A stretch of 64,000 nucleotides of DNA from contig JAENYD010000009.1 of NCBI GenBank assembly GCA_016842005.1, forward strand, positions 20,315 to 84,314, in the 5' to 3' direction. Of this stretch, positions 1,895-58,753 are shown piece after piece. Within the stretch, counting starts at the first letter, position 1. The number at the start of each line of letters is the position of its first letter. Under the pieces are notes generated by a model. That model saw only the letters and a program-made list of their open reading frames with translations. It had not been told where the DNA came from and made no database searches. The position numbers and the translations under genes are program-made. The DNA comes from Clostridium thermobutyricum (GTDB taxonomy: Bacteria > Bacillota > Clostridia > Ch29).

Positions 1895-3229
1895 ATGACC
1901 AGGAAAATGAGCAAGGAAGACGTTTTAAAAAAGGCAAAGGAGCTGGATGTACAGTTTATTCACCTGCAGTTCACCGACATACTGGGGGTAATGAAGAATG
2001 TGGCCATAACTATTGAACAGCTGGATAAGGCCCTGAACAACGAGATAATGTTTGACGGTTCTTCCATTGACGGCTTTGTACGAATAGAAGAATCCGACAT
2101 GTACCTGAGACCCGACCCGTCAACATTCATGGTATATCCATGGGCTGCCCCGGTTAAAGAAGCAAGGCTCATATGCGATGTATACGACAAGGACAACAAG
2201 CCCTTCACAGGATGTCCCAGAAATATCCTGAAGCAAGTGCTGAAAGAAGCGAAAGATATGGGTTTCATAATGAATGCAGGTCCGGAATGCGAATTTTTCC
2301 TCTTCCAGACCGATGAAAAAGGGAACCCATCCCTGGAAACCCAGGATAATGCGGGATACTTTGACCTTGCCCCGGTGGACCTCGGGGAAAGCGCCCGGAG
2401 GGATATGGTGTTAACCCTGAAGCAAATGGGCTTTGAAATAGAGGCATCCCACCATGAAGTAGCCCCTGGCCAGCATGAGATTGATTTCAAATATGACGAT
2501 GCGCTGACCACCGCCGACAACATCATGACCTTCAAGATGACAGTAAGGACTATTGCCCAGCGGCACGGTCTGCATGCCACATTTATGCCCAAACCTATTT
2601 TCGGCATTAATGGGTCGGGGATGCACACCAACCTGTCCCTGGCCACCCTAGACGGGAAAAATGCCTTTTACGATGAAAAGGGAGAGCTGCAACTATCTGA
2701 TATAGCCTTCCACTTCCTTGGTGGAGTGCTTAAATATGCCAGGGCCTTTGCCGCCATTACCAATCCCACCGTAAATTCGTACAAAAGGCTGGTGCCGGGA
2801 TATGAAGCCCCTGTTTACATCGCATGGTCGGCTTCCAATAGGAGCCCCCTTGTAAGGATACCGGCAAAAAGGGGAAATTCCACCAGGCTTGAGCTGAGAA
2901 ACCCGGACCCCTCAGCAAACCCCTACCTTGCCATGGCGGTTATCCTGAAAGCGGGTCTTGACGGCATAAAGAACAAAATCCAGCCCCCTGCCCCTGTGAA
3001 CAGCAACATTTACCACATGAACGAGCTGGATAGAGAGGAAAAGGGTATACAGAGCCTTCCCGGCAGCCTGTTTGAGGCACTCAAGGAACTGTCAGGTTGC
3101 GAACTCATCAAATCGGCCCTGGGACCCCACATTTATAACCGGTTTGTTGAAGCAGCCATGATAGAGTGGAATGAATACAGGACCAGAGTAACCAAATGGG
3201 AAATAGAGAAATATCTCACCAAGTTCTAG
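1895..3229 (+). CDS. glnA: Glutamine synthetase type I
   Basis: 444-aa ORF with AAAGGAGG RBS. Motifs typical of GSI ([30 protein letters not shown]). Confidence 0.95.
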
Positions 3230-3240
3230 TATAAACAGGA

Positions 3241-3356
3241 TTCTATGCTTCAGGTGGAGTGTTAACCCCATCTGAAGCATAGAATATGTTATCCCGGGAC
3301 GTAGCGCCCCTTATCTGCCACCTAAGAGGATGGATGTATTGGTGGCGGTAGTCATC
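3241..3356 (+). repeat. Structured repeat element, copy A (long hairpin plus conserved GTTATCC..GACGTAGCGCC..GGCGGTAGTCATC blocks)
   Basis: Perfect 13-bp outer stem (ttctatgcttcag / ctgaagcatagaa) with an inner stem. Homologous to the copies at 25131 and 41088. Confidence 0.6.
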
Positions 3357-3370
3357 TGATAAATCATAAA

Positions 3371-3412
3371 AAAAGCCCTGATTATTATATTCCCCTTCAC
3401 CAGGGCTTTTTT
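3371..3412. terminator. Bidirectional intrinsic terminator between glnA and the AEC gene
   Basis: aaaaaaaGCCCTG...CAGGGCttttttt. Confidence 0.7.
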
Positions 3413-3446
3413 TATTTCCCGCAGCATTACCGGCTTCTATTTCCCT

Positions 3447-4483: not shown

Positions 4484-4556
4484 TTGTCAAAACTGTCAAG
4501 GGGACGGTTCTTCTGACAACGTTGTCAGAAGAACCGTCCCCTTGACAATCCCCTTG
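4484..4556. repeat. Long perfect palindromic repeat (ggggacggttcttctgacaacgttgtcagaagaaccgtcccc plus flanks)
   Basis: Stem of about 27 bp. Second copy at 7262-7365. Confidence 0.8.
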
Positions 4557-7261: not shown

Positions 7262-7365
7262 ACCTACCAAGGGATTGTCAGGGGGACGGTTCTTCTGACA
7301 ACATTGTCAGAAGAACCGTCCCCCTGACATCGAAGAACCGTCCCCCTGACATCCCCCTGACAGCC
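7262..7365. repeat. Palindromic repeat copy with a partially duplicated arm, inserted between atpD and atpC
   Basis: Same core as the 4500 copy. The tail cgaagaaccgtccccctgaca reiterates one arm. Confidence 0.8.
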
Positions 7366-8766
<1,401 letters not shown>

Positions 8767-9633
8767 TTACTTTAAAGCCTCCGCCCCGCCCACTATTTCG
8801 GATATTTCCCTGGTAATAAGCTCCTGGCGGGCCCTGTTGTAGGACAGGACAAGCTGGTCTATCATGTCATTGGCATTATCGGTGGCAGCATCCATAGCTA
8901 TCCGCCTGGCTGCCTGCTCGCTCACCGACGCCTCTATCATCGCCCCGTATACAGCACTCTGAATGTAACTGGGGACTAAAATATCTATTACCTCTTCGGA
9001 GGAAGGCTCGTAGACCATCAGATCGGCCATCTGTTCCCCGGCTTCCTTGCCGTCATGGGATACAGGGACAGGAACCAGGGTCAGTATCTCCGGCTTCTGG
9101 GAGATGGTGGTTATAAATCTTGTATACGCCAGGTTTATCTTCTGTACTTTCCCCCCTCTGAACAACTCCAGGGCGATCCGCGCTATCTCTGCCGCATCGG
9201 CAAAACCCGGTTTTTCGGAAATATGTATGAATTCCCTGAATACCTCGTATCCCCTTCTTATTAAATAATCCCGTCCTTTCCCTCCCGCCACCACAAAGGT
9301 GTAGTCCCGTTCTTTTCCCAGACGGGACAGGACCGACTTAATCAGATTGATATTATATCCCCCGCAGAGACCCCTGTCCGAAGTTATGACAATGTACAGT
9401 TCATTCCTGACATCGTCGGCCTGCAAGAAAGGGTGTCTGACATTACCGCTGTGCCCGGCAATATCCCGGATGGTACTTAAAGTCTTTTCAAAATAGCTGC
9501 GGGAGGCATCATACCTGCTCCTTGCCCTCCTCAGTTTTGCAGCGGCCACAAGACCCATCCCCCGTGTGATCTGACGGGTGTTCTTTATGCTTTTTATTCT
9601 CCTCTTGATATCTCTCATTCCGCTTTCCGCCAT
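8767..9633 (-). CDS. atpG: F1 ATP synthase gamma subunit
   Basis: 288 aa, gamma-like, between atpA and atpD. Confidence 0.9.
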   Translation of the reverse strand: MAESGMRDIKRRIKSIKNTRQITRGMGLVAAAKLRRARSRYDASRSYFEKTLSTIRDIAGHSGNVRHPFLQADDVRNELYIVITSDRGLCGGYNINLIKSVLSRLGKERDYTFVVAGGKGRDYLIRRGYEVFREFIHISEKPGFADAAEIARIALELFRGGKVQKINLAYTRFITTISQKPEILTLVPVPVSHDGKEAGEQMADLMVYEPSSEEVIDILVPSYIQSAVYGAMIEASVSEQAARRIAMDAATDNANDMIDQLVLSYNRARQELITREISEIVGGAEALK

Positions 9634-9669
9634 TCAGTAGCACCTATCTTTCCGTGTCAGTCCGGGTTT

Positions 9670-11175
9670 TCAATTCCAGCTCTTCTTATAATCCTCCACT
9701 GCTTTTTTCAGTTCCTCTTCGGTATGCTCCGCAAATTCGCCGGTTTCCCTTATACTTTTGCATATCTCAGGGTGGTGGTTCCTCATGAACTCCAGTAACC
9801 CCCTTTCAAAGTCCTTGACTTTTTCGAGGGGTATGTCCTCCAGGTAGTCATTGGATACTGCATAAATGATAATCACCTGGTCCTCCACCTTCATAGTCTG
9901 GTACTGGTCCTGCTTGAGAACCTCCACTATCCTCTGCCCTTTATCCAGTCTTCTCCTGGTCTCCCTGTCCAGTTCGGAACCGAATTGTGCAAAGGCCTCC
10001 AGTTCCCTGTACTGGGCCAGCTGCAGCCGCAGCTCTCCCGCCACCTTTTTCATGGCCTTTATCTGTGCGGCGCCGCCCACCCGTGAGACAGACAATCCCG
10101 CATTCACAGCGGGGCGGACACCGGCATAAAACAGTTCGCTTTCCAGGTATATCTGCCCGTCGGTAATTGATATCACATTGGTGGGGATATATGCCGATAC
10201 GTCCCCAGCCTGGGTTTCTATCAGCGGCAGGGCTGTAAGGGAGCCCCCGCCCAGGTCGTCGTTCAGCTTTGCCGCCCGCTCCAGCAGCCGGGAATGAAGA
10301 TAGAACACGTCTCCCGGATAGGCCTCCCTGGCCGGCGGCCGTCTCAGAAGCAGGGACATGGCTCTGTAGGCCACTGCATGCTTGGACAGGTCGTCATATA
10401 CAATCAGCACATCCTTACCCCGGTACATCAGCTCCTCTCCCATGGCGCATCCCGCATAGGGAGCCAAATACTGAAGGGCGTTGGGCTGGCTGGCTGTGGC
10501 CGAGACCACTATGGTATAATCCATTGCCCCCCACTCCTCAAGGGTATTGACTATCTGTGCCACGGTAGAGGCCTTCTGTCCTATGGCCACATATATGCAT
10601 ATGACATTCTGGTCTTTCTGGTTGAGAATTGTATCAACCGCAATGGCAGTCTTCCCTGTCTGCCGATCACCTATGATCAGTTCCCGCTGGCCTCTCCCTA
10701 TGGGTACCATGGCGTCTATGGCTTTTATCCCCGTCTGCAGTGGCTGACTGACCGATTTCCTTTCTATCACGCCCGGGGCGGGGTATTCCACCGGCCTGGT
10801 CCTGCCGGTATCTGTGGGCCCCTTGCCGTCAAGGGGTTGCCCCAGGGCATTAACCACCCTCCCTTTCAGCTCTTCCCCGACGGGTACCTCCACCACCCTG
10901 CCGGTTTTTTTGACTGTATCCCCTTCTTTTATGTGATCGTCAGACCCCAGAAGCACACAGCCTATATTCTCCTCCTCAAGATTTAAGGCCATTCCATACA
11001 CATTACCGGGGAACTCCAGCAGCTCTCCCGCCATACAGCTTTCCAGACCGTATACCCTGGCAATGCCGTCTCCTACCTGCAGAACAGTGCCCACCTCTTC
11101 CCTTCTGAGCACCCCTGTATAATTTACAATCTGCTGTTTTATTATATGGCTCATTTCCTCAGGCCTGAGCATCAT
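9670..11175 (-). CDS. atpA: F1 ATP synthase alpha subunit
   Basis: 501 aa with Walker A GDRQTGKT. The N-terminus resembles Bacillus AtpA. Confidence 0.97.
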
Positions 11176-11737
11176 AACTCGGTACCACCTCAGCTTCCTG
11201 TAGTTTTGCCTTTTTCATGTGCTGTTTCAATTCATCCAGCCTGCCCTGCAGACTCCCGTCCAGCAGTACGTTGCCCGCCTTCACCTTAATCCCTCCCAGG
11301 ATTCCACGGTCTATCCGGTTCTCTATAATGACGGTTTTATTCAAGGCCCGGGACAGATTCTCCCGCAGCATATCTTTTTCTTTTTCCTCTAGCAATTCCA
11401 CGGTATACACCCGGGCTTTTACAATATTCCGTTCCCTGTCCCCCAGCCGGATAAACAGCCGCAATATGTCCTGCAGCCTGCCCTGCCGCTCCCTGTCTAT
11501 CAGGAGCAGGATAAAGTTCAGCAGTTCGCCTTCCAGTTCCCCGCCTATAAGGTTTTGGATAAATTCTTTCTTTCTTGACGTGCTTATTTGCGGAGAATTG
11601 AGAAGTACTTCCAGGTCCTCCGTTTCTTCCAGAAGCTTCAGCAGTTCCCCCGACTGGGACTGGAGAATTTCTATTTTCCCTTTTTCCCGGGCTGCCTCCA
11701 GCAAGGCCCGGGCATATTTCAGGTCCACTCCGCTCAC
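11159..11737 (-). CDS. atpH: F1 ATP synthase delta subunit
   Basis: 192-aa OSCP-like ORF. Operon position. Confidence 0.85.
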
Positions 11738-12231
11738 GATACCTTCCCTACTTCATCAATAAAATCCCTGACTATTGCCCTGTTTGTATTGCTGTCAAGG
11801 GTTTTCCCGATTACCTTCTGGGCCCCCAGTATTGCCAGGTCCACAACCTGTGCCTTTAATTCGGCCATAGCCTTTTCCTTTTCCAGATTAATATCCCTGC
11901 GGGCCCCTGCCAGTATCCTCTCTCTCTCTCTTTTGGCTTCCCGGATGATTTCCTGCCTCTGCTCCTCCGCCCTGGCAACGGCATCCCTCATAATCCTCTG
12001 CGCCTCTTCCCGGATATCACCCAGCCGGGCCTCATATTCCTCCTTAAGCCTCCGGGCCTGTTCCTCTTTTTCCCTGGCCGATGCAATACTATGCCGGATC
12101 CGCTCCCTCCGGGATGCCATAAACCCCGATACCGGCCTGAATAAAAAATGTCTTAAAAGCAGAAACAGCACCAGTGTATTTATAAGCTGGAGCACCATAT
12201 TGAAGTCAATGCCCACAAGATTTGCCGTCAT
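11734..12231 (-). CDS. atpF: Fo ATP synthase b subunit
   Basis: 165 aa with one N-terminal TM helix and a long charged helix. Confidence 0.85.
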   Translation of the reverse strand: MTANLVGIDFNMVLQLINTLVLFLLLRHFLFRPVSGFMASRRERIRHSIASAREKEEQARRLKEEYEARLGDIREEAQRIMRDAVARAEEQRQEIIREAKRERERILAGARRDINLEKEKAMAELKAQVVDLAILGAQKVIGKTLDSNTNRAIVRDFIDEVGKVS

Positions 12232-12255
12232 ATTGCAGTCCTCCTTTGCCGGCTG

Positions 12256-13537
<1,282 letters not shown>

Positions 13538-13627
13538 TCATCTTTCTGCACCACAGTTGACCGCTCCTGTTGCTCCAGCTTCTTCTGCCGGAGGAGATGA
13601 AAAACCTCCGCTGAAAGAAATTTTCCT

Positions 13628-14296
13628 TTATTCCATGGCCAGGGATATGAATACCATGGAAAGCATGACGAAAATAAATGTCTGCAGCACACCGGCGAAC
13701 AGGTCAAAATACAGGTGGGGAATCACCGGTACCAGAGCCGGTACTACACTATATAAAAGGTACATAATCACCACCCCGCCCAGGATGTTCCCGAAAAGAC
13801 GAAAGGACAGGGAAAGGGGAGTGGCCAGCTCACCTATGATGTTAAGGGGCAAGAGGAAGGGTATGGGCTCTGCGAACCCTTTTAAATACCCCCCTATCCC
13901 CTTTGCTTTCATCCCGTAATAGTGTATGCTTATAAAGGTTATTATCGAAAGGGCCATGGTGGTATTGAGGTCCGCCGTGGGAGGCCTCAGGGCAAATAAT
14001 CCCGACAGATTGGCCGCCAGGAGATAAAGGGCCAGGGTACCCATGTAAGGGGCAAACCCTGCCTTGTCCTCTCCCATTGTCTGGACAGTGAGATTTTCTA
14101 TGCCCTCCACTATTGTCTCCACAACATTCTGTAGCGGTCCGGGGACATCCCGGAACCGTCTGGTGGATACAAAGGCGAATACAATCAAAACCGCCATTAT
14201 TATCCATGTTGTGGTTACTGTCTCGGTAACCCCTGTACCCCCTATAACGGGTATCCAGTCGGGCAAATAGAAGTGTATTTTAGGTGCAAACTCCAT
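13628..14296 (-). CDS. atpB: Fo ATP synthase a subunit
   Basis: Conserved LSLSFRLFGNI arginine motif. The internal start MEFAPK with a GGAGG RBS is preferred over the track start. Confidence 0.85.
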   Translation of the reverse strand: MEFAPKIHFYLPDWIPVIGGTGVTETVTTTWIIMAVLIVFAFVSTRRFRDVPGPLQNVVETIVEGIENLTVQTMGEDKAGFAPYMGTLALYLLAANLSGLFALRPPTADLNTTMALSIITFISIHYYGMKAKGIGGYLKGFAEPIPFLLPLNIIGELATPLSLSFRLFGNILGGVVIMYLLYSVVPALVPVIPHLYFDLFAGVLQTFIFVMLSMVFISLAME

Positions 14297-14337
14297 ATCC
14301 GGTCCTCCTGCAAAAATGGATACTGGGTAATCGGATG

Positions 14338-14745
14338 TCAGCGGTAATCCCAAAAACCCTTTTTAATCAATCCTCTGCTATCAACAATATTATTTACCAG
14401 TATTATTATTTTAATTAATAAAATCCCTGTTATTGTCGCCACCGTATTAATATAGTCCGATTTCAGCGCAATCAGGATTACCGCACCGGTTAAAAAATAT
14501 CTTATGCAATACCCTGATACCGCATGTACGGCAGCCTTCCTTTCAGGCATGGTTACCGCCCTTTCAACCGACAGGGCCAGCAGGCGGAAATTGAGCATGG
14601 AAAACATACCCCCCAGGGTAAAACCGCAGAATATTCCGTAAAAATCACAAAAAACTGCCATTACGGGTATGGCAGCAATATATATGATGACCGCTTTCCG
14701 CATTATGGACTTTTGCAGTTCCCACGTACCCTTCACTGATATCAC
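14338..14745 (-). CDS. atpI: ATP synthase protein I
   Basis: 135-aa hydrophobic ORF upstream of atpB. Confidence 0.6.
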   Translation of the reverse strand: MISVKGTWELQKSIMRKAVIIYIAAIPVMAVFCDFYGIFCGFTLGGMFSMLNFRLLALSVERAVTMPERKAAVHAVSGYCIRYFLTGAVILIALKSDYINTVATITGILLIKIIILVNNIVDSRGLIKKGFWDYR

Positions 14746-15271: not shown

Positions 15272-16435
15272 TTAATCAATAATCTTTTTCCCGGTTTTAC
15301 TTTCTATATCATTTCTAATACCGCTAAGGTCTATTTCAAAACCACATCCGCAAATTAATTTATTATTTTTCGGAAAAAGTCTAACCCCTTTATCTTTCAT
15401 ATCCTTATCTATAATAGGGTCATCAATAAACTTTGCATAAAATTTATGCGTTTCCCCGCACTTTTGGCATTTAACTTCAATTTCCACAGCACCCGATTCT
15501 GTGCTGGTAGGGGGCTTTTGAGCTTTGCGCAAAGCATTAGTGGGAACAGCATCTTTAGTAATTTTAACATCATAAGTAGCAAATAATTTATAGGTACTGG
15601 TAGACATAAAAAGCAATCTCAATACTGTTTGTATCTTATATACAATATCGGCTAATTTGATTTGGTCATCAACTCTTGTAATTTTTAAGCCTATTTCTTC
15701 TAGATCATCAATTTTAATAGAACGCCCATGACTTCTCCATTTACCATGATTAGTCAGTTCATGGGCTATTTCTGCAGCTCTTTCCAATTTTTTCTTTTCT
15801 GAGACTTTTATTCCTCTGGCTTCAGTAATATTCCAATCTTTAAATTTATATCTGCTTAACCAATCAATAACTAAATCTTTAGCGAACTCCAGAGAATTAT
15901 TAACACCTTTTAGTTCCCCGGGACTTATTTGGGCAACCATTGTAGCGTCAAATGGATTTAATTTGCCTTGTTTTTCAGCCTGATCTCTCTTTTCCTTCAC
16001 CCATTCCATATAATCATAGGCCGATATGGTTGACCTTCCAACTCGTACCTGCGCATCTATAGGACCTAAACTCCCGCTTTCTGTCATCAAAATTTCGTTC
16101 CCTGATAGTACAATTATTGTTCCAGCACTTTTAGCTTCTCCTGAAACAACAAATCCTATGTAATCAAATTTACTTCTTAAAAATCTTACAATCTCTTCGG
16201 CAGCGGCTCCACTTCCTCCTGGTGTCTCAATATAAAAATCAAGTTTTTTAGTTTTGATATCTTTTAGCATATCGAATATAACATAATAATCATCCATACT
16301 TAATGGCAAATCAGGAATGGGCTTGCCCATTGCTCCAGCATAAATTATTAAATACGTATCTCTAATCTCATTATATTCTTCAATCAATCTGCGCAACTCA
16401 TTATTTAAGTCCAGAACACTCATTTTTTTACTCAT
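15272..16435 (-). CDS. ClpP/SppA-class (S49/SDH-like) serine peptidase with a C-terminal CxxC...CxC zinc ribbon
   Basis: ETPGGSGAAAEEI and GEAKSAGT motifs resemble SppA/ClpP-fold peptidases. The C-terminus reads CQKCGETH...CGCGFEID. Start taken at MSKKMSV. AT-rich. Confidence 0.55.
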   Translation of the reverse strand: MSKKMSVLDLNNELRRLIEEYNEIRDTYLIIYAGAMGKPIPDLPLSMDDYYVIFDMLKDIKTKKLDFYIETPGGSGAAAEEIVRFLRSKFDYIGFVVSGEAKSAGTIIVLSGNEILMTESGSLGPIDAQVRVGRSTISAYDYMEWVKEKRDQAEKQGKLNPFDATMVAQISPGELKGVNNSLEFAKDLVIDWLSRYKFKDWNITEARGIKVSEKKKLERAAEIAHELTNHGKWRSHGRSIKIDDLEEIGLKITRVDDQIKLADIVYKIQTVLRLLFMSTSTYKLFATYDVKITKDAVPTNALRKAQKPPTSTESGAVEIEVKCQKCGETHKFYAKFIDDPIIDKDMKDKGVRLFPKNNKLICGCGFEIDLSGIRNDIESKTGKKIID

Positions 16436-16560
16436 ATACTCTCCCAGTAAACCCACATTTATACACCTCTTTACCATTTTATTCTAAATGGTCGGGTTCT
16501 AACTGCTCCAGTTATTATTAATATTCTCGCCTTTTCTAAGTTTTCCTTCAATTTGTTACA

Positions 16561-16592
16561 AAAAAAAGGCGTGCAGCTACACGCCTTTTTCC
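16561..16592. terminator. Terminator at the 3' end of the ntp operon
   Basis: aaaaaaaGGCGTGcagctaCACGCCttttt, overlapping the ntpD stop. Confidence 0.65.
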
Positions 16593-17224
16593 ATAACCAT
16601 ATCCTTGACCTTCATCAGCCTTGTAATGTTACCCCGCTCGTTCTCGTCCAGCTTCATGGTAATATACTTGATGGCCTCGGACATATTGGGTATCATTACA
16701 TATTCCAGGGCGTTAACCCTGCGCCTTGTCTTTTCTATTTCAATGGCCATCAACTGACAGCCTTTCTCTATCTCGGCCAGCTTTAAAAGCTTGGGCAGTA
16801 TCCCCGCAAGAATGGATATGGCGTTATCCAGTTCACCGGAGGTACCGGCGAAACCGTAAGGATAGGACTTTTCGCCGCCGGCTTCCCGTTCATCATCCTT
16901 CATTATATTGATGGCGGGAATACGGACGCTCATGACATTTTTGACGGCTACGTCTATATCCACTTTGTCCACGGGATACATGAGGCTTTCCTCCAGCACC
17001 TCGCCGGACATAACGCCCCTGGCCATCACAAAATTCCCGAAAGCCTCTGACAGGTCCCTTTCAATCTCTTCCCTGAGCTCCTTGTTCTGTCTTACCAGTT
17101 CAATGAACTTTTTGACAAGTTCATCCTGCTTGTCTTTGAGGAGCTTATGCCCTCTGCTGGCAACCTTAACCCTTTTCTTAAGCTTTGTCAGCTCCATACG
17201 GGTCGGGTTAACTCGTATTTTCAC
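16577..17224 (-). CDS. ntpD: V/A-type ATPase subunit D
   Basis: 215 aa starting MKIRVNPTRMEL, D-like. Last gene of the ntp operon. Confidence 0.85.
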   Translation of the reverse strand: MKIRVNPTRMELTKLKKRVKVASRGHKLLKDKQDELVKKFIELVRQNKELREEIERDLSEAFGNFVMARGVMSGEVLEESLMYPVDKVDIDVAVKNVMSVRIPAINIMKDDEREAGGEKSYPYGFAGTSGELDNAISILAGILPKLLKLAEIEKGCQLMAIEIEKTRRRVNALEYVMIPNMSEAIKYITMKLDENERGNITRLMKVKDMVMEKGV

Positions 17225-17227
17225 GGC

Positions 17228-18610
17228 TTACAACTCCTTTTTCTCAGGCAGATACTTTTCGATATATTCATCCCTTATCCTCTTCAGCTCTGCCTTGGGA
17301 AGAATAGCAAGAAGCTCCCATCCTATCTGCAGCGTTTCTTCAATAGAACGGTTTTCATATTCGCCCTGGGATACATACCTCTTTTCAAATTCATCGGCAA
17401 ATTTGGCAAACAGCTTGTCAGTATCGCTCAAAGCCGCTTCGCCGAGGATTACCGCCAGTTCCTTCGCCTCTTTACCTCTGGCATAGGCGGCAAACAGCTG
17501 GTTCATGGTATCCGCATGGTCTTCCCTTGTTTTCCCTTTGCCTATACCCTTGTCCTTAAGCCTTGACAGGGACGGCAGAACATCTATAGGAGGCATGACG
17601 CCCTTACGGTACAGCTCCCTGCTGAGGATTACCTGACCCTCGGTAATATACCCGGTAAGGTCGGGTATGGGATGGGTCTTGTCGTCTTCGGGCATGGTCA
17701 GTATGGGTATCTGGGTAACAGACCCTTCTTTGTCCAGCAGCCGTCCCGCCCTTTCATAAATGGTGGACAGGTCGGTGTACATGTATCCGGGATAACCCCT
17801 CCTGCCGGGCACCTCCTTACGGGCTGCCGACACCTCCCTCAGGGCTTCACAGTAATTGGTTATATCAGTCAGTATTACCAGGACGTGCATACCTTTTTCA
17901 TAGGCCAGGTACTCGGCTGCCGTCAGGGCCATCCTGGGGGTGGCAATACGCTCTATGGCAGGGTCATTGGCCAGGTTTATGAAGAGTACCGACCGGTCTA
18001 TGGCCCCGGTTTTCCTGAAGTCGGTAATGAAGTAGTTGGCCTCCTCAAAGGTTATACCTATAGCCGCAAACACAACGGCAAACTTGCTTTCGCCGCCCAG
18101 CACCTTTGCCTGACGGGCAATCTGAGCCGCCAGCTGGGAGTGGGGCAGTCCGGACCCTGAGAATATGGGGAGCTTTTGTCCCCTGACCAGGGTGTTAAGA
18201 CCGTCTATGGCAGAAACCCCTGTCTGAATAAACTCTTCAGGATAATCCCTTGCAGTGGGGTTTATAGGCGCACCGTTTATATCCAGCCTTTTTTCAGGTA
18301 TCACTTTGGGACCGTTGTCTCTGGGCCGGCCGAATCCGTCAAAAACCCGGCCCAGGATGTCTGCAGATACGGGCAATTCCAGGCCCTTACCCAGGAACCT
18401 TACCTTAGTGTCGTTAACGTTAATGCCTGTGGAACCTTCAAAAAGCTGTATCAAAGCCTTATCCCTGTCTATTTCCAGGACCTTGCCCCTGCGCACTTCA
18501 CCGCTGCCAAGTTCTATCTCGACCAGTTCGTCATAACTGGCACCTTCCACCCCTTCTACCATCATAAGGGGACCGGCTACCTCTTTAATGGTTCTGTATT
18601 CTTTAAGCAC
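17228..18610 (-). CDS. ntpB: V/A-type ATPase subunit B
   Basis: 460 aa with a V-type B sequence. Confidence 0.93.
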
Positions 18611-20375
18611 TCAGGACACCTCCCTCGGAAACCAGGCTCTCCAGTTCCTTCCTGACTTCTTCTTTCACTGCTTCAATCTTGTCCATCTCGGTTTCTGACA
18701 GGTACTTCATCCTGGCTATTTTCTCCCTTACGGGATGGACTTCTATTTCCTTGAAGGAAGCCCCCGCTTCCATGGCCTTTTCGGCTTCGTCCCGGAATAC
18801 GAGAATGGTCTTGAGCATCTCATACTGCTTCTTGAGAGAAGCATAGGTATCCACTTCGTGAAATGCATTCTGGTGCAGGAAGTCCTCCCTTATGGACTTG
18901 GCAACCTCCAGTATCAGCCTGTCTTTAATGGACAGGGCATCAATACCTACCAGCCGCACAATCTCCTGGAGTTCCGCTTCCACCTGGAGAAGCCTCATGG
19001 CTTCAGCCCGCAGTGCACCCCAATCCTTATCCACATTTTCCTCCAGCCATCCTTCCACAGTATCCAGGTACAGGGAATAGCTGGTCAGCCAGTGAATAGC
19101 GGGGAAGTGACGGCTGTAAGCCAGGGAAGCATCCAGGGCCCAGAACACTTTTACGACCCGCAGGGTGCCCTGTGTAACAGGCTCGGACAGGTCTCCGCCC
19201 GGAGGCGATACGGCGCCTACCGCTGTGACAGCGCCCTCTCTGCCCTCACTGCCTGCACAGACAACCCGTCCCGCCCGTTCATAGAACTCCGCCAGCCGGG
19301 ATGCCAGATATGCGGGATAACCCTCTTCACCGGGCATCTCTTCAAGACGTCCGGACATTTCCCTGAGGGCCTCCGCCCAGCGGGATGTGGAGTCGGCCAT
19401 CAGGGCTACGCTGTACCCCATATCCCTGAAATATTCCGCTATGGTTATACCGGTGTATATGGACGCCTCCCGGGCGGCAACCGGCATGTTGGAGGTATTG
19501 GCAATAAGCACGGTTCGCTTCATAAGCGGTTCCCCGGATTTCGGGTCCACCAGTTCCGGGAATTCCATAAGCACGTCGGTCATCTCATTGCCCCGCTCGC
19601 CGCAGCCTATATATACAACTATATCCGCATCAGCCCACTTTGCCAGCTGGTGCTGGATGACAGTCTTTCCGCTTCCGAAGGGCCCGGGGATACAGGCAAC
19701 GCCTCCTTTTGCCACAGGGAAGAACATATCCACAACCCTTTGACCGGTGGTCATGGGCTGGAGGGGGGGCAGCTTTTCCTTGTAGGGCCTGATACGTCTG
19801 ACAGGCCACCTCTGCAGCATCTGGACTTCCTTTACACCGTCCCCGGTCTCAATCTCTGCGATGGTATCCTCTATAGTGGCGGCGCCCGAATGTATTTTAA
19901 CCACTTTTCCTTCTATCCCGTGGGGAACCATTATCTTGTGGTCCACCAGAACCGTTTCTTTTACCACGCCCAGTATATCCCCGCCTGTAACGCTGTCTCC
20001 GGCCTTGACCACAGGCTGGAAATCCCATTTCTTTTTCCGGTCCAGGGCGGGCACTTCAATACCCCTGGTTATAAAGTCTCCGGCCTCTTTCTTGATAAGG
20101 TCCAGGGGCCTCTGAATACCGTCAAATATTGCCTCAATAATGCCGGGAGCCAGTTCCACGCTCAGCGGGACCCCGGTACCTTCCACCGGGTCCCCGGGGG
20201 TGAGGCCGGCAGTTTCTTCATATACCTGTATTGAGGCGATACCGCTCTTTATTTCGATAATCTCCCCGATCAAACGCTGTTTTCCCACCCTGACAACGTC
20301 AAACATCTTGGCATCATCAAGGCCTTCAGCCATAACCAGGGGACCAGAAATCTTAGTTATCCTACCTTGTCTCAA
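18603..20375 (-). CDS. ntpA: V/A-type ATPase catalytic subunit A
   Basis: 590 aa with P-loop GPFGSGKT. Confidence 0.95.
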
Positions 20376-20713
20376 TTGTCTCCTCCCTCGCTTTCGAAGA
20401 GTATGTCTACTCCTATTGCTCTTTCTACAGAGCTTTTTATTTTTTCCATTCCTATACCCAGTGAGCCCTGATTGTTGGGTATAAGTATTATGGCAGGCAA
20501 AACCTCGTTCTCATATTCTTCTATCATATCTTCTATCTGGCCCGCGACCTGTTCGGTAATAAATATGACGGCATATTTATCCTTTGCCAGGGTCCTCAGG
20601 GTCTTTTTGGCTTCATCCCTGTCGATAACCGGAAAAGTACCCACGCCGAGAGCCTTAAAGGCCAGTACCGTATCCTTGTCTCCTATTACTCCAATCCTAT
20701 ACATAAACATCAC
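20372..20713 (-). CDS. ntpG: V/A-type ATPase subunit F
   Basis: About 110 aa, F-like. Confidence 0.75.
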
Positions 20714-21698
20714 GCAACCTTTCCCGCAGTTTGTCCGCCGGTATCCCGTTTATCTTCCCGACCATGACCATGCGTATGACCTTGACTTCATTCTCTACCG
20801 CCCTCAGGAAGCCTATAATCGGGAGAATACCGAAGGCTGCGTATTTCCCTGCCCTGGCCAGACCGAGCAGGAAGTTGTCACTTACCTTTTCCATCACGGT
20901 GGAATCCCCTGTATCCAGCCATGACTGGACTCCTTCCACCGCAATCCTGTCATATTTAGTTGCATGCAACCTGTCGGCAAAACTGCTGACAGGTTCGTTC
21001 ACAGCATCCAGAAAGAATGACCTGTCCAAGAATCCCCCTTCAAGGATTACGGTTTCCAGGAACTTTGCGTCCTTGCCCATCTTCTTAACCCGCAGGAAGC
21101 TGTTCATATTGATTACGTCTATCTCCGACTTCAGTATTCCCGTCAGACCGGCGTCATTTATTTCTGCTGCCAGCTCCGTAAGGGCTGCAAACAAAGCCCT
21201 GTCCAGGATTAAATCTATTCTCTGGGGGTCCCTGCTTAACTGGAAATCAGCCATTGCTTCTTCACAGGCATCTTTCAGGAAAGGGGGCAGACTGCCGAAT
21301 TCTTCATCTGCTACAGCCTTCCTGATGATCTCAATGTCCACCGACCCCAGACGAGAAAGGATATACCCGTAATCCTCCTCCAGGTATTTCTGCTTCAGGA
21401 GGACTTTCAGATTGTGAAAATCGTATCTCATCTTGGAAAAAAGCGAAAACCTGCTGTCCCTTGTGGAATCGTCTATGACCTTGTAGGTGGATTTCAAGCT
21501 CGCCTCCAGTGCCTTTTCGAAGTCATGAACGCTGTCCACTTCCGCAAAATAGCTGCCATAGTCCGTTTCGCCCAGGATTTTCAATGCGCTTTCCGGAGTT
21601 GGGGCCTCTAACATTCTTTCAACCGTGTTTCTGGTAAGGAGATTATTTTCCAGGGCCTTTATCCTGGATACTGCGTACAAATACTTTGTATCCTTCAT
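20697..21698 (-). CDS. ntpC: V/A-type ATPase subunit C (d homologue)
   Basis: About 333 aa. Start chosen at MKDTKY because of an AGAGGGGGGA RBS. Confidence 0.8.
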   Translation of the reverse strand: MKDTKYLYAVSRIKALENNLLTRNTVERMLEAPTPESALKILGETDYGSYFAEVDSVHDFEKALEASLKSTYKVIDDSTRDSRFSLFSKMRYDFHNLKVLLKQKYLEEDYGYILSRLGSVDIEIIRKAVADEEFGSLPPFLKDACEEAMADFQLSRDPQRIDLILDRALFAALTELAAEINDAGLTGILKSEIDVINMNSFLRVKKMGKDAKFLETVILEGGFLDRSFFLDAVNEPVSSFADRLHATKYDRIAVEGVQSWLDTGDSTVMEKVSDNFLLGLARAGKYAAFGILPIIGFLRAVENEVKVIRMVMVGKINGIPADKLRERLRDVYV

Positions 21699-21711
21699 TG
21701 AGGTCCCCCCT

Positions 21712-22299
21712 CTATTCCTGGAAAAGGATTTCCGCAATTTGTGTTTCTATCTGATCCCTCTCCATCCTTATTAATGTATCAAAAGAATTATTAATCTCAA
21801 TACCCGTGGACTTCAGTATGAAACCGCCCTTGATATTCCTTTCCTCTCCGGACAGTTTCAGGTCGAGCCCCAGTTTGCTGTTGATATCCTTTAAAAGCCC
21901 TTTTTCGAACAACTGCCTGTCCCCGGCAGAGACTATAATCTCTTCGTCCCCGTTTGCGCCGGCATCTTTGACCATCTTCATCACAAGGGCTTTGTACTCT
22001 TTACCCTTAAGGTTTTGCAGTCTCCCAAGGGCTTCATCGAATGCCCGGTCAATGAGCTTCTGCTTGATGGCCAGTTCTTCCTTCCTTATATCCAGCTCTG
22101 CCATTGCCAGCATTCTTCTTCTGGCTTCTTCCGCTTCCTCCCGGCCTTTCTCCCGGAGTTTCGCCCTGAGGCTTTCCGCCTCTTTGGAAGCCTGTTCCAT
22201 GACTTCCGCAACCTTGCCTTCCGCTTCCTTTATTATATCTTCGGCCTGAGCCCTGGCATCTTCCAGAATCCTGTCCTTTATTCTCTGCATTCCCTGCAT
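21712..22299 (-). CDS. ntpE: V/A-type ATPase subunit E
   Basis: 195-aa charged helical ORF. Confidence 0.8.
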   Translation of the reverse strand: MQGMQRIKDRILEDARAQAEDIIKEAEGKVAEVMEQASKEAESLRAKLREKGREEAEEARRRMLAMAELDIRKEELAIKQKLIDRAFDEALGRLQNLKGKEYKALVMKMVKDAGANGDEEIIVSAGDRQLFEKGLLKDINSKLGLDLKLSGEERNIKGGFILKSTGIEINNSFDTLIRMERDQIETQIAEILFQE

Positions 22300-22312
22300 T
22301 TAGGCCACTCCC

Positions 22313-22804
<492 letters not shown>

Positions 22805-24742
22805 CTATAATTCCTCCTCGTACTGTAATTTAGTATATTTTGTCTTTAATCTAAAAGGACTGAACGTCCTGCCGCCGCCGTCGTAAAACTTGCTGAAAAA
22901 CTCCACATACTGCAGACGGCTGGAATGAACGTAAGCGCCAAGCGCGTTTATGGCTATGTTGAATATATGTCCGACTATCAGTACCACCACCATCAGCAGG
23001 TAACCGATAATATTGAATCCCAGCATCTTGGCCATGGTATTCACAACTATGCCGATAACTCCGGTAGCAAGCCCCAGAGCCAGTATCCTTGAATAGGAGA
23101 GCACATCGCTCAGATACCCTGTAACCCCGTACAGGCTTAAAATACCGGAGGACACCTTCCCTAAAATGTTTTTCTTCGTACGGCCCTGTGTCAGGACAAG
23201 TCCCGCTGCTCCTGCCAGAGACAGTATCTTGGCGGGTCCGGCAGCTGCAGGGAAGGCGAACATTATAAGCCCTGTAAGCAGCAGATACCAGAAGCCCTGG
23301 TCAAAAACCGCATCCATGATTTTACCTGCTTTGATATTCCTGTATGCCATGGCCCCAAGACCTACGTAAATCTGTATTATACCCAGCACGAAACTGAACA
23401 TCAGCAGGATCATGGGGTCCTTCAGGGGATTAATCCATAGGGCGGGGATTTTTATAAGGTCCCCGAACCAGCCTCCGAACATGGCACCCCAGAACAGTGT
23501 TGATATACCGCCTAAAGCCACCAGACCGAAAAGTTTTTTCATGGTCCCCTCGGGCTTCATGGTTTTCAATGCCCAGAAGCCAATCAGTGCCAGGACTATA
23601 CCGTATCCGGCGTCACTAATCATCATACCGAAAAATATGAAGAAAAAGGGCGCCACAAGTATATTGGGATCAATGTCCTTCTTTCCGGGAGGACTGTACA
23701 GGTCGGTTATCATCTCGTAGGGCCGGACAATTTTCGGGTTGTCCACAACTACAGGCACATCGTCGTCTTCCCCGGGGTCGCTGAAGGCTATACAAGCCTC
23801 GGGTATGTCCCGCAGTATGGCCATTTTGACCTTTTCCATACCGGTCTCGGGTATCCACCCTTCCATATAGAAGGTCCTGGCTGTTTCACCGGTAGCTGCA
23901 ACCACCGACTTTCTCTCTGCAAGGGCATTGTAATAGTCGTATAAAAACTCCATTTTCTGCCGGATGCCTGATAGTGAAACCGCCTTATCGGCTATCTCCT
24001 GCCTTATACGGTCAAACCCCGCTATCTGTTCTTTAGCCCGGGCTATCACCTCGGCGGCAGTCCCCTCTTCCCGGGGCAGGTCCTCCTTGCTCCATGAACT
24101 CTCCTTTAATATGTCTGAAATCTTTTCTTCCAGGGATTTATGATACACCAGCAGGACATGAGCGGATTCACTGTCGGTGCTGACAATCTCCAGATGGCTT
24201 TCAGGAGCGGTTTCCTCCAGTCTGTCCTTAACGCCTTCAACCCCGTCCGCCGACAGGGTTCCCGTATAAATCCTTACCGTATCTGTCGCCTTTATTTCCT
24301 CAATAGGAATGTCCAGACCTTCCCAGGGTTTCAAAACCTCTATAATGTTATTTAACTTCATTTCCTCGCTTTTTATGCTGTTAAGCCTGGCTTCCAGTTC
24401 CCTGCATTCCTTTATGACATCCCGGACTTCCCGGGACTGCGAAAGGCGTTCTATATTCTCCTCCCGGTACAGAGGTTTCTCTCCGAACAGGGACCTTTTG
24501 GGCTTTGAATACCGGCCCATGAATTCAAGGGCAAACTGCACATCCGCCAGCTTATTCTGCAGGTCGGTTACTTCTTTGTTATGGTCTCCGGGAGCAAAAA
24601 CCTTCTCCCATTCTTCCTTTGAAACCCTGTCCTTTATATTGATGATTTCCACCTTTCCCAGCTTTTGCAACAGCTTAACGATGTCATTCCTGTCTTTCTG
24701 GAGAGCAATAACCGACATTTTCTTTACATTAACTATTGCCAT
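22805..24742 (-). CDS. ntpI: V/A-type ATPase subunit I (a homologue)
   Basis: 645 aa with a soluble N-terminal domain and a polytopic C-terminal domain. Confidence 0.9.
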   Translation of the reverse strand: MAIVNVKKMSVIALQKDRNDIVKLLQKLGKVEIINIKDRVSKEEWEKVFAPGDHNKEVTDLQNKLADVQFALEFMGRYSKPKRSLFGEKPLYREENIERLSQSREVRDVIKECRELEARLNSIKSEEMKLNNIIEVLKPWEGLDIPIEEIKATDTVRIYTGTLSADGVEGVKDRLEETAPESHLEIVSTDSESAHVLLVYHKSLEEKISDILKESSWSKEDLPREEGTAAEVIARAKEQIAGFDRIRQEIADKAVSLSGIRQKMEFLYDYYNALAERKSVVAATGETARTFYMEGWIPETGMEKVKMAILRDIPEACIAFSDPGEDDDVPVVVDNPKIVRPYEMITDLYSPPGKKDIDPNILVAPFFFIFFGMMISDAGYGIVLALIGFWALKTMKPEGTMKKLFGLVALGGISTLFWGAMFGGWFGDLIKIPALWINPLKDPMILLMFSFVLGIIQIYVGLGAMAYRNIKAGKIMDAVFDQGFWYLLLTGLIMFAFPAAAGPAKILSLAGAAGLVLTQGRTKKNILGKVSSGILSLYGVTGYLSDVLSYSRILALGLATGVIGIVVNTMAKMLGFNIIGYLLMVVVLIVGHIFNIAINALGAYVHSSRLQYVEFFSKFYDGGGRTFSPFRLKTKYTKLQYEEEL

Positions 24743-25055
24743 CTCTGGTCACTATCCTCTCCATAATATATTCTACGGCCTTATCCATTTTTTCAATGGC
24801 AGCCTGCTCCATAGACGTCCATTTTGTACGGTATTCTTCCCTGAGTTTATCTACCTCCTTTTCACATGACTTTGTGGCCTTCTCCACCATATCAGCATTT
24901 GCTTCTTCGCCGTCAGTGCGGGCTTTCTGGATAATGGCATCGGCCCTGGCTTTACCGTCCTTTACCAGCTGAGCAGCTTTTTTCCTGGCCTCGGACAGTA
25001 TTTCTTCAGCCTCTTTTTCAGCTTCTTTTATGTTTTTTATTTCTTCAAATGCCAA
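24729..25055 (-). CDS. ntpF: V/A-type ATPase subunit G/H (NtpF-like); TTG start
   Basis: 108-aa charged helical protein. First gene of the operon. GAGGTGGTG RBS. Confidence 0.65.
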   Translation of the reverse strand: MAFEEIKNIKEAEKEAEEILSEARKKAAQLVKDGKARADAIIQKARTDGEEANADMVEKATKSCEKEVDKLREEYRTKWTSMEQAAIEKMDKAVEYIMERIVTRDGNS

Positions 25056-25130: not shown

Positions 25131-25255
25131 GGGATTCCTGGCCTCGGGTGGGGTTTTAACCCCATCTGAAGCTTAAAATCCGTTATCCAGAGGCGTAGCG
25201 TCGCTTATCTCCCTTCCTAAGAGAACGGGAATATTGGGGTCGCTAACCACCGGGA
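25131..25255 (+). repeat. Structured repeat element, copy B
   Basis: Same block order as copies A and C. The hairpin is preserved through G-U pairs. Lies 76 nt upstream of ntpF. Confidence 0.5.
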
Positions 25256-25715
25256 TAAACATAAATGGGAACATTATTACCTCTAAAACTGATAGCATCT
25301 CGGGGGGATGCATATCGTGGAGCAAAAAGTACAAATTAATAATTATACCAACAATTCTATTATACTATAATAATTATAAAATTAACAAAGTCTGTGAGTC
25401 AAAATATACTCTGACACCGATTAATACAGCCAATTAAAGATAGTTCGACATAAAACCCTGAATTCCTGTGAATGTTTAAAATTTTTTTGCAACTTATAAA
25501 ATTAATTGGAAGCTTACATTTTTTTAAGAAACCCCCGGTAATGTAAAACTCCCTTCAGGCGGGCCTCCAAATACAAAAAAAAGGGTAAGAAGAACCCTCT
25601 CTATGGATAGCTGTATTGTATATATTAAACCAGAAAGAGCTCTTCTTTTCATTGCATAATTATTACCATATCAATTACTGTATCCGGATATATATATGCC
25701 AGTGTATTTTGAATA

Positions 25716-41087: not shown

Positions 41088-41211
41088 CAGGATTCTTAGC
41101 TTCAGGCGGGGTGTTAACCCCGCCTGAAGTTTAGAAACCGTTATCCAGGGACGTAGCGCCGCTTATTATCTCCCGCCTGAAAAGGCAGGGGTATTAGCGG
41201 CGGTAGTCATC
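41088..41211 (+). repeat. Structured repeat element, copy C
   Basis: Perfect 12-bp hairpin (cttcaggcgggg tgttaa ccccgcctgaag) plus shared downstream blocks. Lies between the rpmE terminator and the DUF1385 gene. Confidence 0.6.
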
Positions 41212-41218
41212 GGGTAAA

Positions 41219-41251
41219 GCAAAAAATAGAGACTGGAATGGTTACCAGTCT
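41219..41251 (-). terminator. rpmE intrinsic terminator
   Basis: agactgg...ccagtct hairpin followed by a T-run on the minus strand. Confidence 0.65.
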
Positions 41252-51076: not shown

Positions 51077-51481
51077 TTATAAGAAAAATGGGTTTAACAA
51101 TTTTAACCCAAAATCAAGTAAATGTCTGAAATCGTCTTCATTTCGAGTTACTAGCGTAGCAGCATGTTCTATAGCAGTGGCAGCAATTAGTGCGTCTGGT
51201 AATTTTAGTGAACGGTTGCAATTGGATTTACTTACCCGCCGGAGTTCTCCCGCTTTAAGAGCAACCGTTGAATTTACTTCTATAATTTCTCCTAAATCCA
51301 GTATGCTTCTTAAATCATGAATATCTTCTTCTGTAAGCTTCAAAGATGAAAATAACTCTGCTTCTACAATTACCGAATATACTATGCCATTATTCTGAGC
51401 TTTCTTCATGAAATTTACTGCCGGCTCAAGCCCGTTCATTGTATAAACAATAATATTCGTATCCACACAGTACTTAGTCAA
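51077..51481 (-). CDS. vapC: PIN-domain toxin VapC
   Basis: 134 aa with the conserved D residues (CVDTNI, ...NEDDF). Confidence 0.8.
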   Translation of the reverse strand: MTKYCVDTNIIVYTMNGLEPAVNFMKKAQNNGIVYSVIVEAELFSSLKLTEEDIHDLRSILDLGEIIEVNSTVALKAGELRRVSKSNCNRSLKLPDALIAATAIEHAATLVTRNEDDFRHLLDFGLKLLNPFFL

Positions 51482-51734
51482 GCTCTGGAACCTCCCTGTC
51501 TTCTTTCCGGCGCATGCTTAAAATATCTGCAACAATGTCAGGGCGGTTTTCCCATTTACCGGCAACTTTTTCGATAATTCCTTCCGGTTTATTCTTTTTA
51601 ATAACTTTTAAAATAATTTTATTTTTATCCGGGATCACCTCAACCAAATCCCCTGGTTTAATATCCGTACCACGCAATATCTTCTTAATGGAAATACGAC
51701 CCTGGGGGTCTACCTTTTCCCTAATAGTAGGCAT
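51474..51734 (-). CDS. vapB: AbrB/SpoVT-type antitoxin (VapB-like)
   Basis: About 86 aa. Overlaps vapC by 8 nt. GAGGAGGTG RBS. Confidence 0.7.
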   Translation of the reverse strand: MPTIREKVDPQGRISIKKILRGTDIKPGDLVEVIPDKNKIILKVIKKNKPEGIIEKVAGKWENRPDIVADILSMRRKEDREVPELD

Positions 51735-51825
51735 CAAAAAGCACCTCCTCTTCTCATAGTATAACATTAAATGAGGTATTTGCCACGAAAATTGTATCTA
51801 TTCAGTACGATAATATTTTTACTAT

Positions 51826-58137: not shown

Positions 58138-58306
58138 TAATTTCTTTCACAGGCACATATTCATATATTCTTTATATAGCGGATAATTCCTCCTGAAAAT
58201 GTATATTTCCTCCTGTGATTTTCTGTTTTCGTGCTGCATCTTATGGGACAAATTTTCTCCTTTTTGTGGTAAAATATATAAGAGATTAAATACCGGGGGT
58301 GAGCCT

Positions 58307-58753
58307 GTGGAAGACAGCAGAATACTCAGCCTTATATTGGATAAAATAACAAATATAGAAAAAAACCAGCAAAAACTGGAACAGGATATGGCTGAGATGA
58401 AGGCCGAAGTAACCAGCCTCAAGACAGAAATGGCCGGCATGAAGACCGAAATAGCCGAAATGAAAGCCGAAATGACCTGCATGAAGACCGAGATTGCCGA
58501 CATGAAGGCAGAAATGGCCGGCATGAAGACCGAGATTGCCGACATGAAGACCGAAATGGCCGATATGAAGACCGAAATAACCGGCATAAAAACCGAGATT
58601 GCCAGTATGAAGACAGAAATGTCCGACATGAAGAAAACTGTCGATTTCATCAGTGCAAATCAAAAAACCGTTATGTATTATATAGTGCATATAGACAAGG
58701 CATTCAACGAGCAGTCCAAGAGGATTGAAGAGCTGGAGCAGAAAATATGCTAA
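58307..58753 (+). CDS. Met-rich heptad-repeat coiled-coil protein (about 12 repeats of MKTEIAD/MKAEMAG); GTG start
   Basis: In-frame 21-nt tandem repeats. Codon pattern K at e, E at g, and Met/Ile at a/d. Flanked by terminators. Confidence 0.6.
   Translation: MEDSRILSLILDKITNIEKNQQKLEQDMAEMKAEVTSLKTEMAGMKTEIAEMKAEMTCMKTEIADMKAEMAGMKTEIADMKTEMADMKTEITGIKTEIASMKTEMSDMKKTVDFISANQKTVMYYIVHIDKAFNEQSKRIEELEQKIC
58388..58636 (+). repeat. About 12 tandem copies of a 21-bp repeat (atgaagaccgagattgccgac variants)
   Basis: Visible periodicity. In-frame within the coiled-coil gene. Generates shadow ORFs on both strands. Confidence 0.85.

Follow-up and report, generated by a model that had tools for sequence, protein, structure and literature searches.

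The bcr1 repeat of the B. cereus group, one of the group A repeats bcr1-bcr3, is ∼155 bp long, is bordered by TTTAT on both sides, forms two stem-loops with compensatory changes, is transcribed within UTRs and has been described as specific to that group (PMC3184786, PMC3446304, PMC6199540). A mechanism resembling site-specific recombination has been proposed for the bcr TTTAT repeats (PMC6542083, PMC6199540). IS200/IS605 insertion sequences insert 3′ of TTTAT, TTGAT or ATTAT, with no target duplication and no inverted repeats (PMC4227781). Insertions of the IS200/IS605 type have also been reported to follow the lagging-strand template. The hairpin repeats known as REPs measure 20–40 bp (PMC3733652), and unnamed stem-loop families were reported from C. 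tetani and C. perfringens (Clot-1 and Clop-1) by Petrillo et al. (2008).

Three segments of the window (the whole stretch of DNA that was analysed, 64 kb) are copies of a gene-less mobile DNA element of Clostridia and their prophages. The closest analogue of this element is bcr1, the two being compared by description and not by consensus sequence. Both are non-coding, intergenic and ∼130–155 nt in length, are present in tens of copies per genome at places that differ from strain to strain, are flanked by the pentamer TTTAT/ATAAA, often lie inside UTRs, have no known transposase and possess two independent stem-loops kept by compensatory changes. The repeat bcr1 has been reported from the B. 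cereus group only, whereas the element described here was found in Clostridia and prophages, and its left pentamer was shown to be borne by the element rather than generated by duplication. No Bacillus plasmid among 72,556 plasmids searched with blastn matched the element, which is a weak negative covering plasmids only.

The window was found to hold exactly three copies, all on the + strand, in agreement with a first-pass annotation that had reported three related copies of one orientation at these places. A profile HMM made from the three copies matched only A, B and C in the window (E values 2e-43 to 2e-42). A covariance model derived from 27 non-redundant family members, run over the window with filters off, scored C at 139, A at 121 and B at 109 bits and detected nothing else of the family, the best unrelated match reaching 19 bits (E=0.018). 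Pairwise identity between the copies was 74–80%. The places reported previously were correct, but the extents were too narrow, as each copy runs from ATAAAC to ...CATCGG followed by ATAAA or GTAAA and measures 133–136 nt. The features of the three copies are as follows.

3231-3363, + strand: copy A, 133 nt; 121 bits; MFE -55.1 kcal/mol, z -5.2
3231-3235, + strand: left pentamer of copy A, ATAAA
3235-3289, + strand: P1 hairpin of copy A
3288-3294, + strand: strap of copy A, GTTATCC
3290-3361, + strand: P2 hairpin of copy A
3359-3363, + strand: right (target) pentamer of copy A, ATAAA
25125-25259, + strand: copy B, 135 nt; 109 bits; MFE -52.2 kcal/mol, z -3.1
25182-25188, + strand: strap of copy B
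25255-25259, + strand: right pentamer of copy B, ATAAA
41083-41218, + strand: copy C, 136 nt; 139 bits; MFE -75 kcal/mol, z -9.3
41140-41146, + strand: strap of copy C
41214-41218, + strand: right (target) pentamer of copy C, GTAAA

Copy C was the best preserved of the three and copy B the most decayed, with several pairs broken. The GGATTC and GTTATCCnGnGnCGTAGCG..CTTAT blocks were common to the copies as had been described, but a further block thought to be shared by all, GGCGGTAGTCATC, was degraded to GGGGTCGCTAACCACC in copy B, and the 21-codon ORF that had been seen in copy A was not conserved.

The window represents core chromosome, with asnB, glnA, murA, F- and V-ATPase operons, CoA-transferase, thiolase, rho, rpmE, prfA/prmC and citrate lyase among its genes. 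In the 30 of its 63 ORFs that were scanned against Pfam there was no transposase, integrase or reverse transcriptase; glnA, murA and both ATPase operons are among the ORFs outside that scan. The stop codon of glnA occupies 3227-3229, copy A begins 1 nt later, and a bidirectional terminator hairpin (∼3374-3414), which also serves glnA and the convergent gene, follows directly after the end of the copy. Copy A, located between the stop codon and the terminator, is therefore carried in sense in the glnA 3′ UTR, and it is the only copy with a terminator behind it. Copy B occupies the spacer that separates the V-ATPase operon (start at 25055, - strand) from the CoA-transferase B gene (end at 25716, - strand). 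It is antisense in the presumed V-ATPase 5′ leader, which begins at a strong - strand promoter-like site (25402..25373, in agreement with 11/12 consensus positions) that reads into the operon. Copy C has the rpmE terminator (- strand, 41251..41230) on one side and, on the other, the ribosome-binding site of the DUF1385/prmC/prfA operon, which starts at or before 41067 on the - strand; the copy is antisense to both. Consensus scans detected no + strand promoter upstream of copies A and C. The closest named relatives of the DUF1385 protein of the window (Caloranaerobacter, Alkaliphilus and others) were ∼60% identical to it.

The unit can be written as 5′-AT(A/C/T)AAC-P1 hairpin-CGTTATCCAGGG-P2 hairpin-(T/G)AGnCATCGG-3′. 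Conservation stopped sharply at ATAAA on both sides, beginning after ...(T) with ATAAACAGGATTC and finishing with CATCGGATAAA, and random AT-rich flanks were found beyond. The hairpin that had been described as 12–13 bp long is present, but P1 extends over about 21–24 bp, the AAC of the left end pairing with GUU at its base; a second, longer and imperfect hairpin, P2, is also present, and at its base UCC is paired to a GGA close to the right end. P1 and P2 are separated by the heptamer GUUAUCC, here termed the strap, which can pair with both ends of the element, AU-n-AAC pairing with GUU-AU at the left end and GGAUAA with UUAUCC at the right end and target. The strap and the joined ends GGAUA(A)AC are complementary if one A is bulged, and this bulged base is the third position of the left pentamer, which varies. 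Most of the conserved sequence lay at the ends and the junction, while the helices varied freely. No terminal inverted repeats were found, the ends ATAAACAGGATTC and TTTATCCGATG being unrelated; there are subterminal hairpins at both ends, and P1 and P2 are unlike each other.

Among the 27 non-redundant short copies, standard pairs made up 97.4% of pair cells and 12/36 pairs showed changes on both sides. No measure of covariation was reached by any column shuffle (0/500), and sliding the partners by 1–3 columns reduced pairing to 29–45%. The 91 distinct sequences were 96.2% paired with 20 compensatory pairs, in an alignment which was made to the model and leans towards it. In a second subfamily, found in metagenomes, the pairing of P2 is retained although its sequence (ACUCUACAGUGCUUAUCUCCCAC...GUGGGAGUCUUAGCACUGUUAGUC) is wholly different. 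G.U pairs outnumbered A.C on the + strand, at 47 vs 7 in one count and 147 vs 33 in another, in which 64 of the 147 came from one conserved G.U pair and 12 involved a target base. The + strand of the copies in the window also folded 3–13 kcal/mol better than the - strand. The change between copies A and C that preserves pairing (C-G/U-A) was found as the first-pass annotation had described it, and the covariation is real and strong. In a mobile element such covariation is a sign of selection for the folding of one strand, which may be DNA or RNA, and does not by itself demonstrate an RNA function.

Elements ranged in size from 112 to 136 nt and were longer, up to 350 nt, where extra modules were present. 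Size steps of 134, 185, 236 and 287 nt were generated by a 51-nt module occurring 0–3 times in the P2 loop. This module (AAGCAGAGAnCCCAAATCTnTGATTTGGTGnGAATCGCTTTCACAGAGTGC; L021, 4763-5049, among other loci) occupies the apical loop of P2 and is sometimes nested in its own loop. Orthologous pairs from sister genomes (L054/L055 and L002/L047) differed by the 51-nt module alone, so the module itself has been gained or lost. Some copies carried a 48-nt insert in P1, and prophage copies carried a 31-nt extra hairpin with CTTA on its flanks. At one prophage site (L087-L109, ∼2019-2210) at least four structural variants of the element were observed, namely a simple 135-nt form, the form with the 31-nt hairpin and CTTA, and complex forms with a second GTTATCC block, and the variant in L098/L099 appears to include an inverted stretch; the variants at this site indicate rapid rearrangement of the P1 region. 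The right flanks of some copies (L063 ∼6530, L006 ∼5350 and L046 ∼5669) contained just the first 8–10 nt of another unit (CAGGATTCT...) followed by unrelated DNA, as if a second unit had been truncated or the right end had undergone read-through or an abortive event.

The distribution of the family was assessed by scanning species-representative genomes, a set to which the genome of the window does not belong, for the exact pattern GTTATCCNGNGNCGTAGCGNCNCTTAT, which gave 70 loci in about 10 Clostridia genomes. A covariance-model scan for more copies, as the first-pass annotation had suggested, yielded 92 matches at E<=1e-8 in the genome loci collected. A Clostridiaceae MAG carried ∼35 copies, Clostridium sp. 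OS1-26 (CP133264) carried 12 and C. aciditolerans 10, and further carriers were a Ruminiclostridium MAG and several MAGs classified as 'Clostridia/Bacillota'. A looser pattern, TTAGAANNCGTTATCCAGGG, was used for IMG/VR prophage and metagenome contigs and matched 10 IMG/VR prophage contigs and, among the matches listed, at least 120 metagenome contigs. Contigs often terminated within the element, as is expected of a repeat that breaks assemblies. The sole plasmid matched by blastn among the 72,556 was C. tetani plasmid p12124569, which carries a divergent copy, and a blastn search of GenBank phages with the element gave no match. The first-pass annotation had been unable to match the element to a known riboswitch or sRNA, and Rfam 15 likewise gave no match at the gathering score over the whole window, ribozymes and omega-RNA/HEARO included; in E-value mode only sub-threshold hairpin look-alikes were returned (<=27 bits against cut-offs of 45–100). 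Literature searches with the conserved blocks as strings returned unrelated primers only, and keyword searches for Clostridium MITEs or TTTAT repeats returned nothing specific. The Clot-1 and Clop-1 families, which are not characterised, might overlap this family, and the element was apparently undescribed before.

Evidence for movement came from a prophage site at which the element, ∼130 nt long, lies directly after a gene encoding 173 aa. Four prophages (L100, L101, L103 and L105) had an empty allele in which CTTATAATATAAA was followed directly by AATATTTTGGG; two others (L093 and L095) had the filled allele CTTATAATATAAA-CAGAG...CATCGG-ATAAA-AATATTTTGGG, and the 173-aa proteins of empty and filled prophages were 95–97% identical. 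The empty site (...ATAAT-ATAAA-AATATT...) contains a single ATAAA. No empty sites were found among the genome loci, where every orthologous pair was filled, and copy C was absent between the rpmE terminator and DUF1385 in relatives with 73–82% identical DUF1385. Head-to-tail arrays in which one pentamer is shared were present at six loci (L005, L020, L046, L058, L061 and L062), and at two others (L125 and L129) copies were nested in the P2 apical loop of other copies. At L129 the loop CCCACTT-ATAGA-AGTGGG had become CCCACAT-(ATTAACAGGG...CATCGG)-ATAGA-AGTGGG, and L125 was similar. One of the readings offered by the first-pass annotation, that of a mobile element of PATE or MITE type, is thus upheld by empty and filled prophage sites, nesting, arrays, dozens of copies per genome and absence in relatives.

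Identical pentamers were present on both sides in about 70% of copies, and the copies in which they deviate allowed the origin of each to be assigned. Where either pentamer deviated from ATAAA, left and right were the same in 3/23 copies in one count and in 0/35 in another. In the genome set ATAAA was present at 60/61 true left ends and at 55/73 right ends (p=9e-5). In the second subfamily the left pentamer is ATCAA or ATTAA across many independent sites and the right one ATAAA or ACAAA, and the right pentamer of the nested insertion at L129, ATAGA, is sequence of the host loop. The opposite assignment, with the target on the left and the element-borne pentamer on the right, was considered and is contradicted by the nested insertions and by the second subfamily. 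The element thus carries its left pentamer along, and the right pentamer belongs to the target. Filled sites consequently mimic 5-bp direct repeats without true target duplication, and the element is defined by these data as AT(N)AAC...CATCGG, inserting immediately 5′ of an ATAAA-like pentamer. This insertion point 5′ of ATAAA is 3′ of TTTAT on the other strand.

No ORF was found inside any copy. All-against-all clustering of ORFs around 70 genome loci and 120 metagenome loci (∼0.56 Mb and ∼0.74 Mb of flanks respectively) detected no recurrent neighbour protein; the clusters obtained were widespread paralogous families, ABC ATPases and chemotaxis proteins for instance. No autonomous element or transposase with matching ends was present in about 1.4 Mb of flanks, and no autonomous long form was seen, the largest copies (up to 350 nt) adding small hairpin modules only. 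Genes located between inverted copy pairs were ordinary, and no RAYT-like gene was flanked by copies. Orientation relative to neighbouring genes is random, with the element in the direction of two rightward genes in 20 cases (>E>), between two leftward genes in 17 (<E<), between divergent genes in 14 (<E>) and between convergent genes in 6 (>E<). Orientation relative to local GC skew, a proxy for ori/ter, was 36 vs 37, and 31 vs 30 where the skew was strong. A cis-regulatory RNA or riboswitch was rejected, as the element has no constant position and orientation upstream of a consistent gene set. The other reading offered by the first-pass annotation, a family of sRNA genes, was not supported: there is no fixed gene context or orientation, consensus scans gave copies A and C no + strand promoter of their own, the transcripts that run across copies B and C have the opposite sense, and only copy A has a terminator behind it.

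The element shares with IS200/IS605 a one-sided pentanucleotide target, the lack of duplication, the lack of terminal inverted repeats and the presence of subterminal hairpins. It differs in that no relative encoding TnpA or TnpB with the ends of the element was found among the 91 genome and about 125 metagenome copies and their flanks, in the lack of a replication-strand orientation bias, in that its better-folding strand is opposite to the expected 'top' strand, and in that its two hairpins differ from each other, whereas the left- and right-end hairpins of IS200/IS605 are typically alike. REP/REPIN sequences are likewise intergenic hairpin repeats, often arrayed, and the main subfamily of the element has GTAG beside a GC-rich stem (CGTAGCGCC...) as they do; in contrast, the element is a discrete unit of ∼130 nt with defined ends and target, and its second subfamily lacks the conserved GTAG. 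A REP/REPIN-RAYT system was rejected on the size of the unit, this loss of GTAG and the ordinary genes between inverted copies. Correia/NEMIS, RUP, BOX and ERIC repeats are also multi-copy, intergenic, structured if transcribed and able to alter the expression of neighbours, but in those known to be mobile the ends are inverted repeats and the target is truly duplicated, and the element shows neither feature.

The explanation that we favour, with a probability of roughly 0.6, is that of a non-autonomous element, comparable to bcr1 or the gene-less relics of IS200/IS605, whose folded single strand is mobilised in trans. The enzymology of this movement is wholly what we infer: the folded strand would be acted upon in trans by an enzyme encoded elsewhere, most likely a single-strand transposase of HUH type such as those of IS200/IS605 or IS91. 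The junction and strap would present the ends and choose the target through base pairing, the covariation of the hairpins would reflect the need to keep the fold for mobility, and any effects on host genes would be side effects of the landing place, such as the glnA 3′ UTR, the V-ATPase leader or the rpmE-DUF1385 spacer. In IS608 an internal guide recognises the ends and the target through base pairing, and the strap appears well placed for a comparable role. Counting against a single-strand mechanism of the HUH type are the lack of a partner transposase in the flanks, the lack of an orientation bias with GC skew and the dissimilarity of the two hairpins; in addition, with the target 5′ of the element, the IS200/IS605 convention makes the - strand the active one, yet the + strand folds better. 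An extension of this explanation, by analogy with bcr1-3, would make the element a distinct class of strap-guided mobile elements of Bacillota, in which GUUAUCC pairs with its own joined ends and with the ATAAA target and so programmes cleavage and integration of the folded single strand by an unlinked enzyme, and in which the loops of resident copies are preferred landing pads, giving nested modular growth; we consider this doubtful.

The main rival is integration of a circle by a site-specific recombinase, and we judge it improbable. Here an excised circle with one ATAAA core and arms ...TAGnCATCGG-ATAAA-CAGGATTC... would be joined by a tyrosine, serine or DEDD recombinase to any ATAAA in AT-rich spacers. 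The tandem junction is the circle junction that this predicts, the same pentamer stands on both sides of about 70% of copies, there is no replication-strand bias (GC-skew proxy), and the proposal made for the bcr TTTAT repeats provides a precedent (PMC6542083, PMC6199540). However, pentamers that almost never co-vary (3/23 and 0/35) are a poor fit to a common crossover core, one subfamily consistently has unlike pentamers on the left and right (ATCAA vs ATAAA), the wobble bias towards one strand suggests that the substrate is single-stranded, and the element has no recombinase gene linked to it. Less likely than the single-strand or recombinase models are both RNA-mediated mobility and a primary RNA function. 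That the element works as RNA, whether as sRNAs or as mRNA stabilisers, RNase III sites or insulators, and that mobility only spreads it, would account for the strong covariation, the excess of G.U over A.C on the + strand and the better folding of that strand; copy A must be transcribed together with glnA, in sense, and about half of the bcr repeats of B. cereus are transcribed within UTRs (PMC3446304). Such a role is nevertheless unlikely in view of the random orientation relative to neighbouring genes, the antisense position of B and C to local transcripts, the lack of a + strand promoter at A and C, the lack of a conserved gene context, the existence of relatives without the element at the same site and the decay of copies such as B. 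Both hairpins, moreover, are simple long helices, with conservation at the ends and junction as expected of sites recognised by an enzyme. A SINE-like route, in which a + strand transcript ending ...GGAUAAA-3′ anneals to nicked TTTAT and serves as the template of a reverse transcriptase, such as that of a group II intron, would suit the selection of structure on one strand, the lack of replication or transcription orientation bias and an A-rich 3′ end complementary to the target. It is very improbable, as there is no conserved internal promoter and no linked reverse transcriptase, and the right pentamer comes from the target rather than being templated by the element; we know of no precedent for SINE-like mobility in bacteria. 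Equally remote is a classical MITE, the deletion derivative of an insertion sequence with a DDE transposase and a 5-bp ATAAA target duplication. The small, non-coding and multi-copy nature of the element, the apparent 5-bp direct repeats and the single ATAAA at the empty site resemble such a derivative, but terminal inverted repeats are lacking, the pentamers are not faithful duplicates and no parent insertion sequence was found.

The separation of the two pentamers and the apparently guide-like strap offer a concrete handle for finding the missing enzyme, and the end sequences (...CCTGTTTAT, CCGATG... and the strap) are available for matching to other elements. Searches for RNA motifs would keep flagging the ∼130-nt element as a riboswitch or sRNA candidate, which its identity as a mobile repeat prevents, and the end and target rules, the 27-copy alignment and the consensus structure are sufficient to rebuild a covariance model for masking. 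The findings extend the bcr1-type 'TTTAT' repeats from the B. cereus group to Clostridia and prophages, and add as new details the distinction between element-borne and target pentamer, the strap, nested modular growth and carriage by prophages. Two hairpins of 20–30 bp could change mRNA stability or translation in the glnA 3′ UTR, in the V-ATPase leader and before the ribosome-binding site of DUF1385/prmC/prfA.

Several further features of the window were observed. A second repeat family consists of a 54-nt perfect palindrome (TGTCAAGGGGACGGTTCTTCTGACAAC followed by GTTGTCAGAAGAACCGTCCCCTTGACA) at 4494-4547 and 7276-7329, in the spacer downstream of murA and in the spacer next to atpC, with TGTCAA/GAAGAACCGTCCCCCTGACA half-copies alongside; four occurrences of this family were counted against 0.01 expected by chance, and a similar GGGGACAGGGAC palindrome lies between rpmE and DUF1385 in a relative (L072, 2390-2470). 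Nine tandem 21-nt units (58385-58675), with a periodicity of 7 aa, were found in a 184-aa ORF (58199-58753, + strand) which gave weak, mostly sub-cutoff Pfam matches of coiled-coil type and is flanked by two genes for S-layer-homology-domain proteins. Four repeats of 222–249 nt, 61–78% identical, lie at 12274-13453 in and just beyond a 482-aa ORF (11588-13036, + strand) with no Pfam match. A PIN-domain gene (51077-51481, - strand) overlaps an upstream 97-aa ORF (51474-51767, - strand), adjoining rho, and the two are likely to be a toxin-antitoxin pair of VapBC type. The complete F-type ATP synthase operon (7366-14745) and the V-type ATPase operon (15272-25055) adjoin each other on the - strand. 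The window also encodes efflux components of OEP/AcrB type and S-layer-homology-domain proteins, hinting at a cell envelope that is unusual for a member of the Clostridia.
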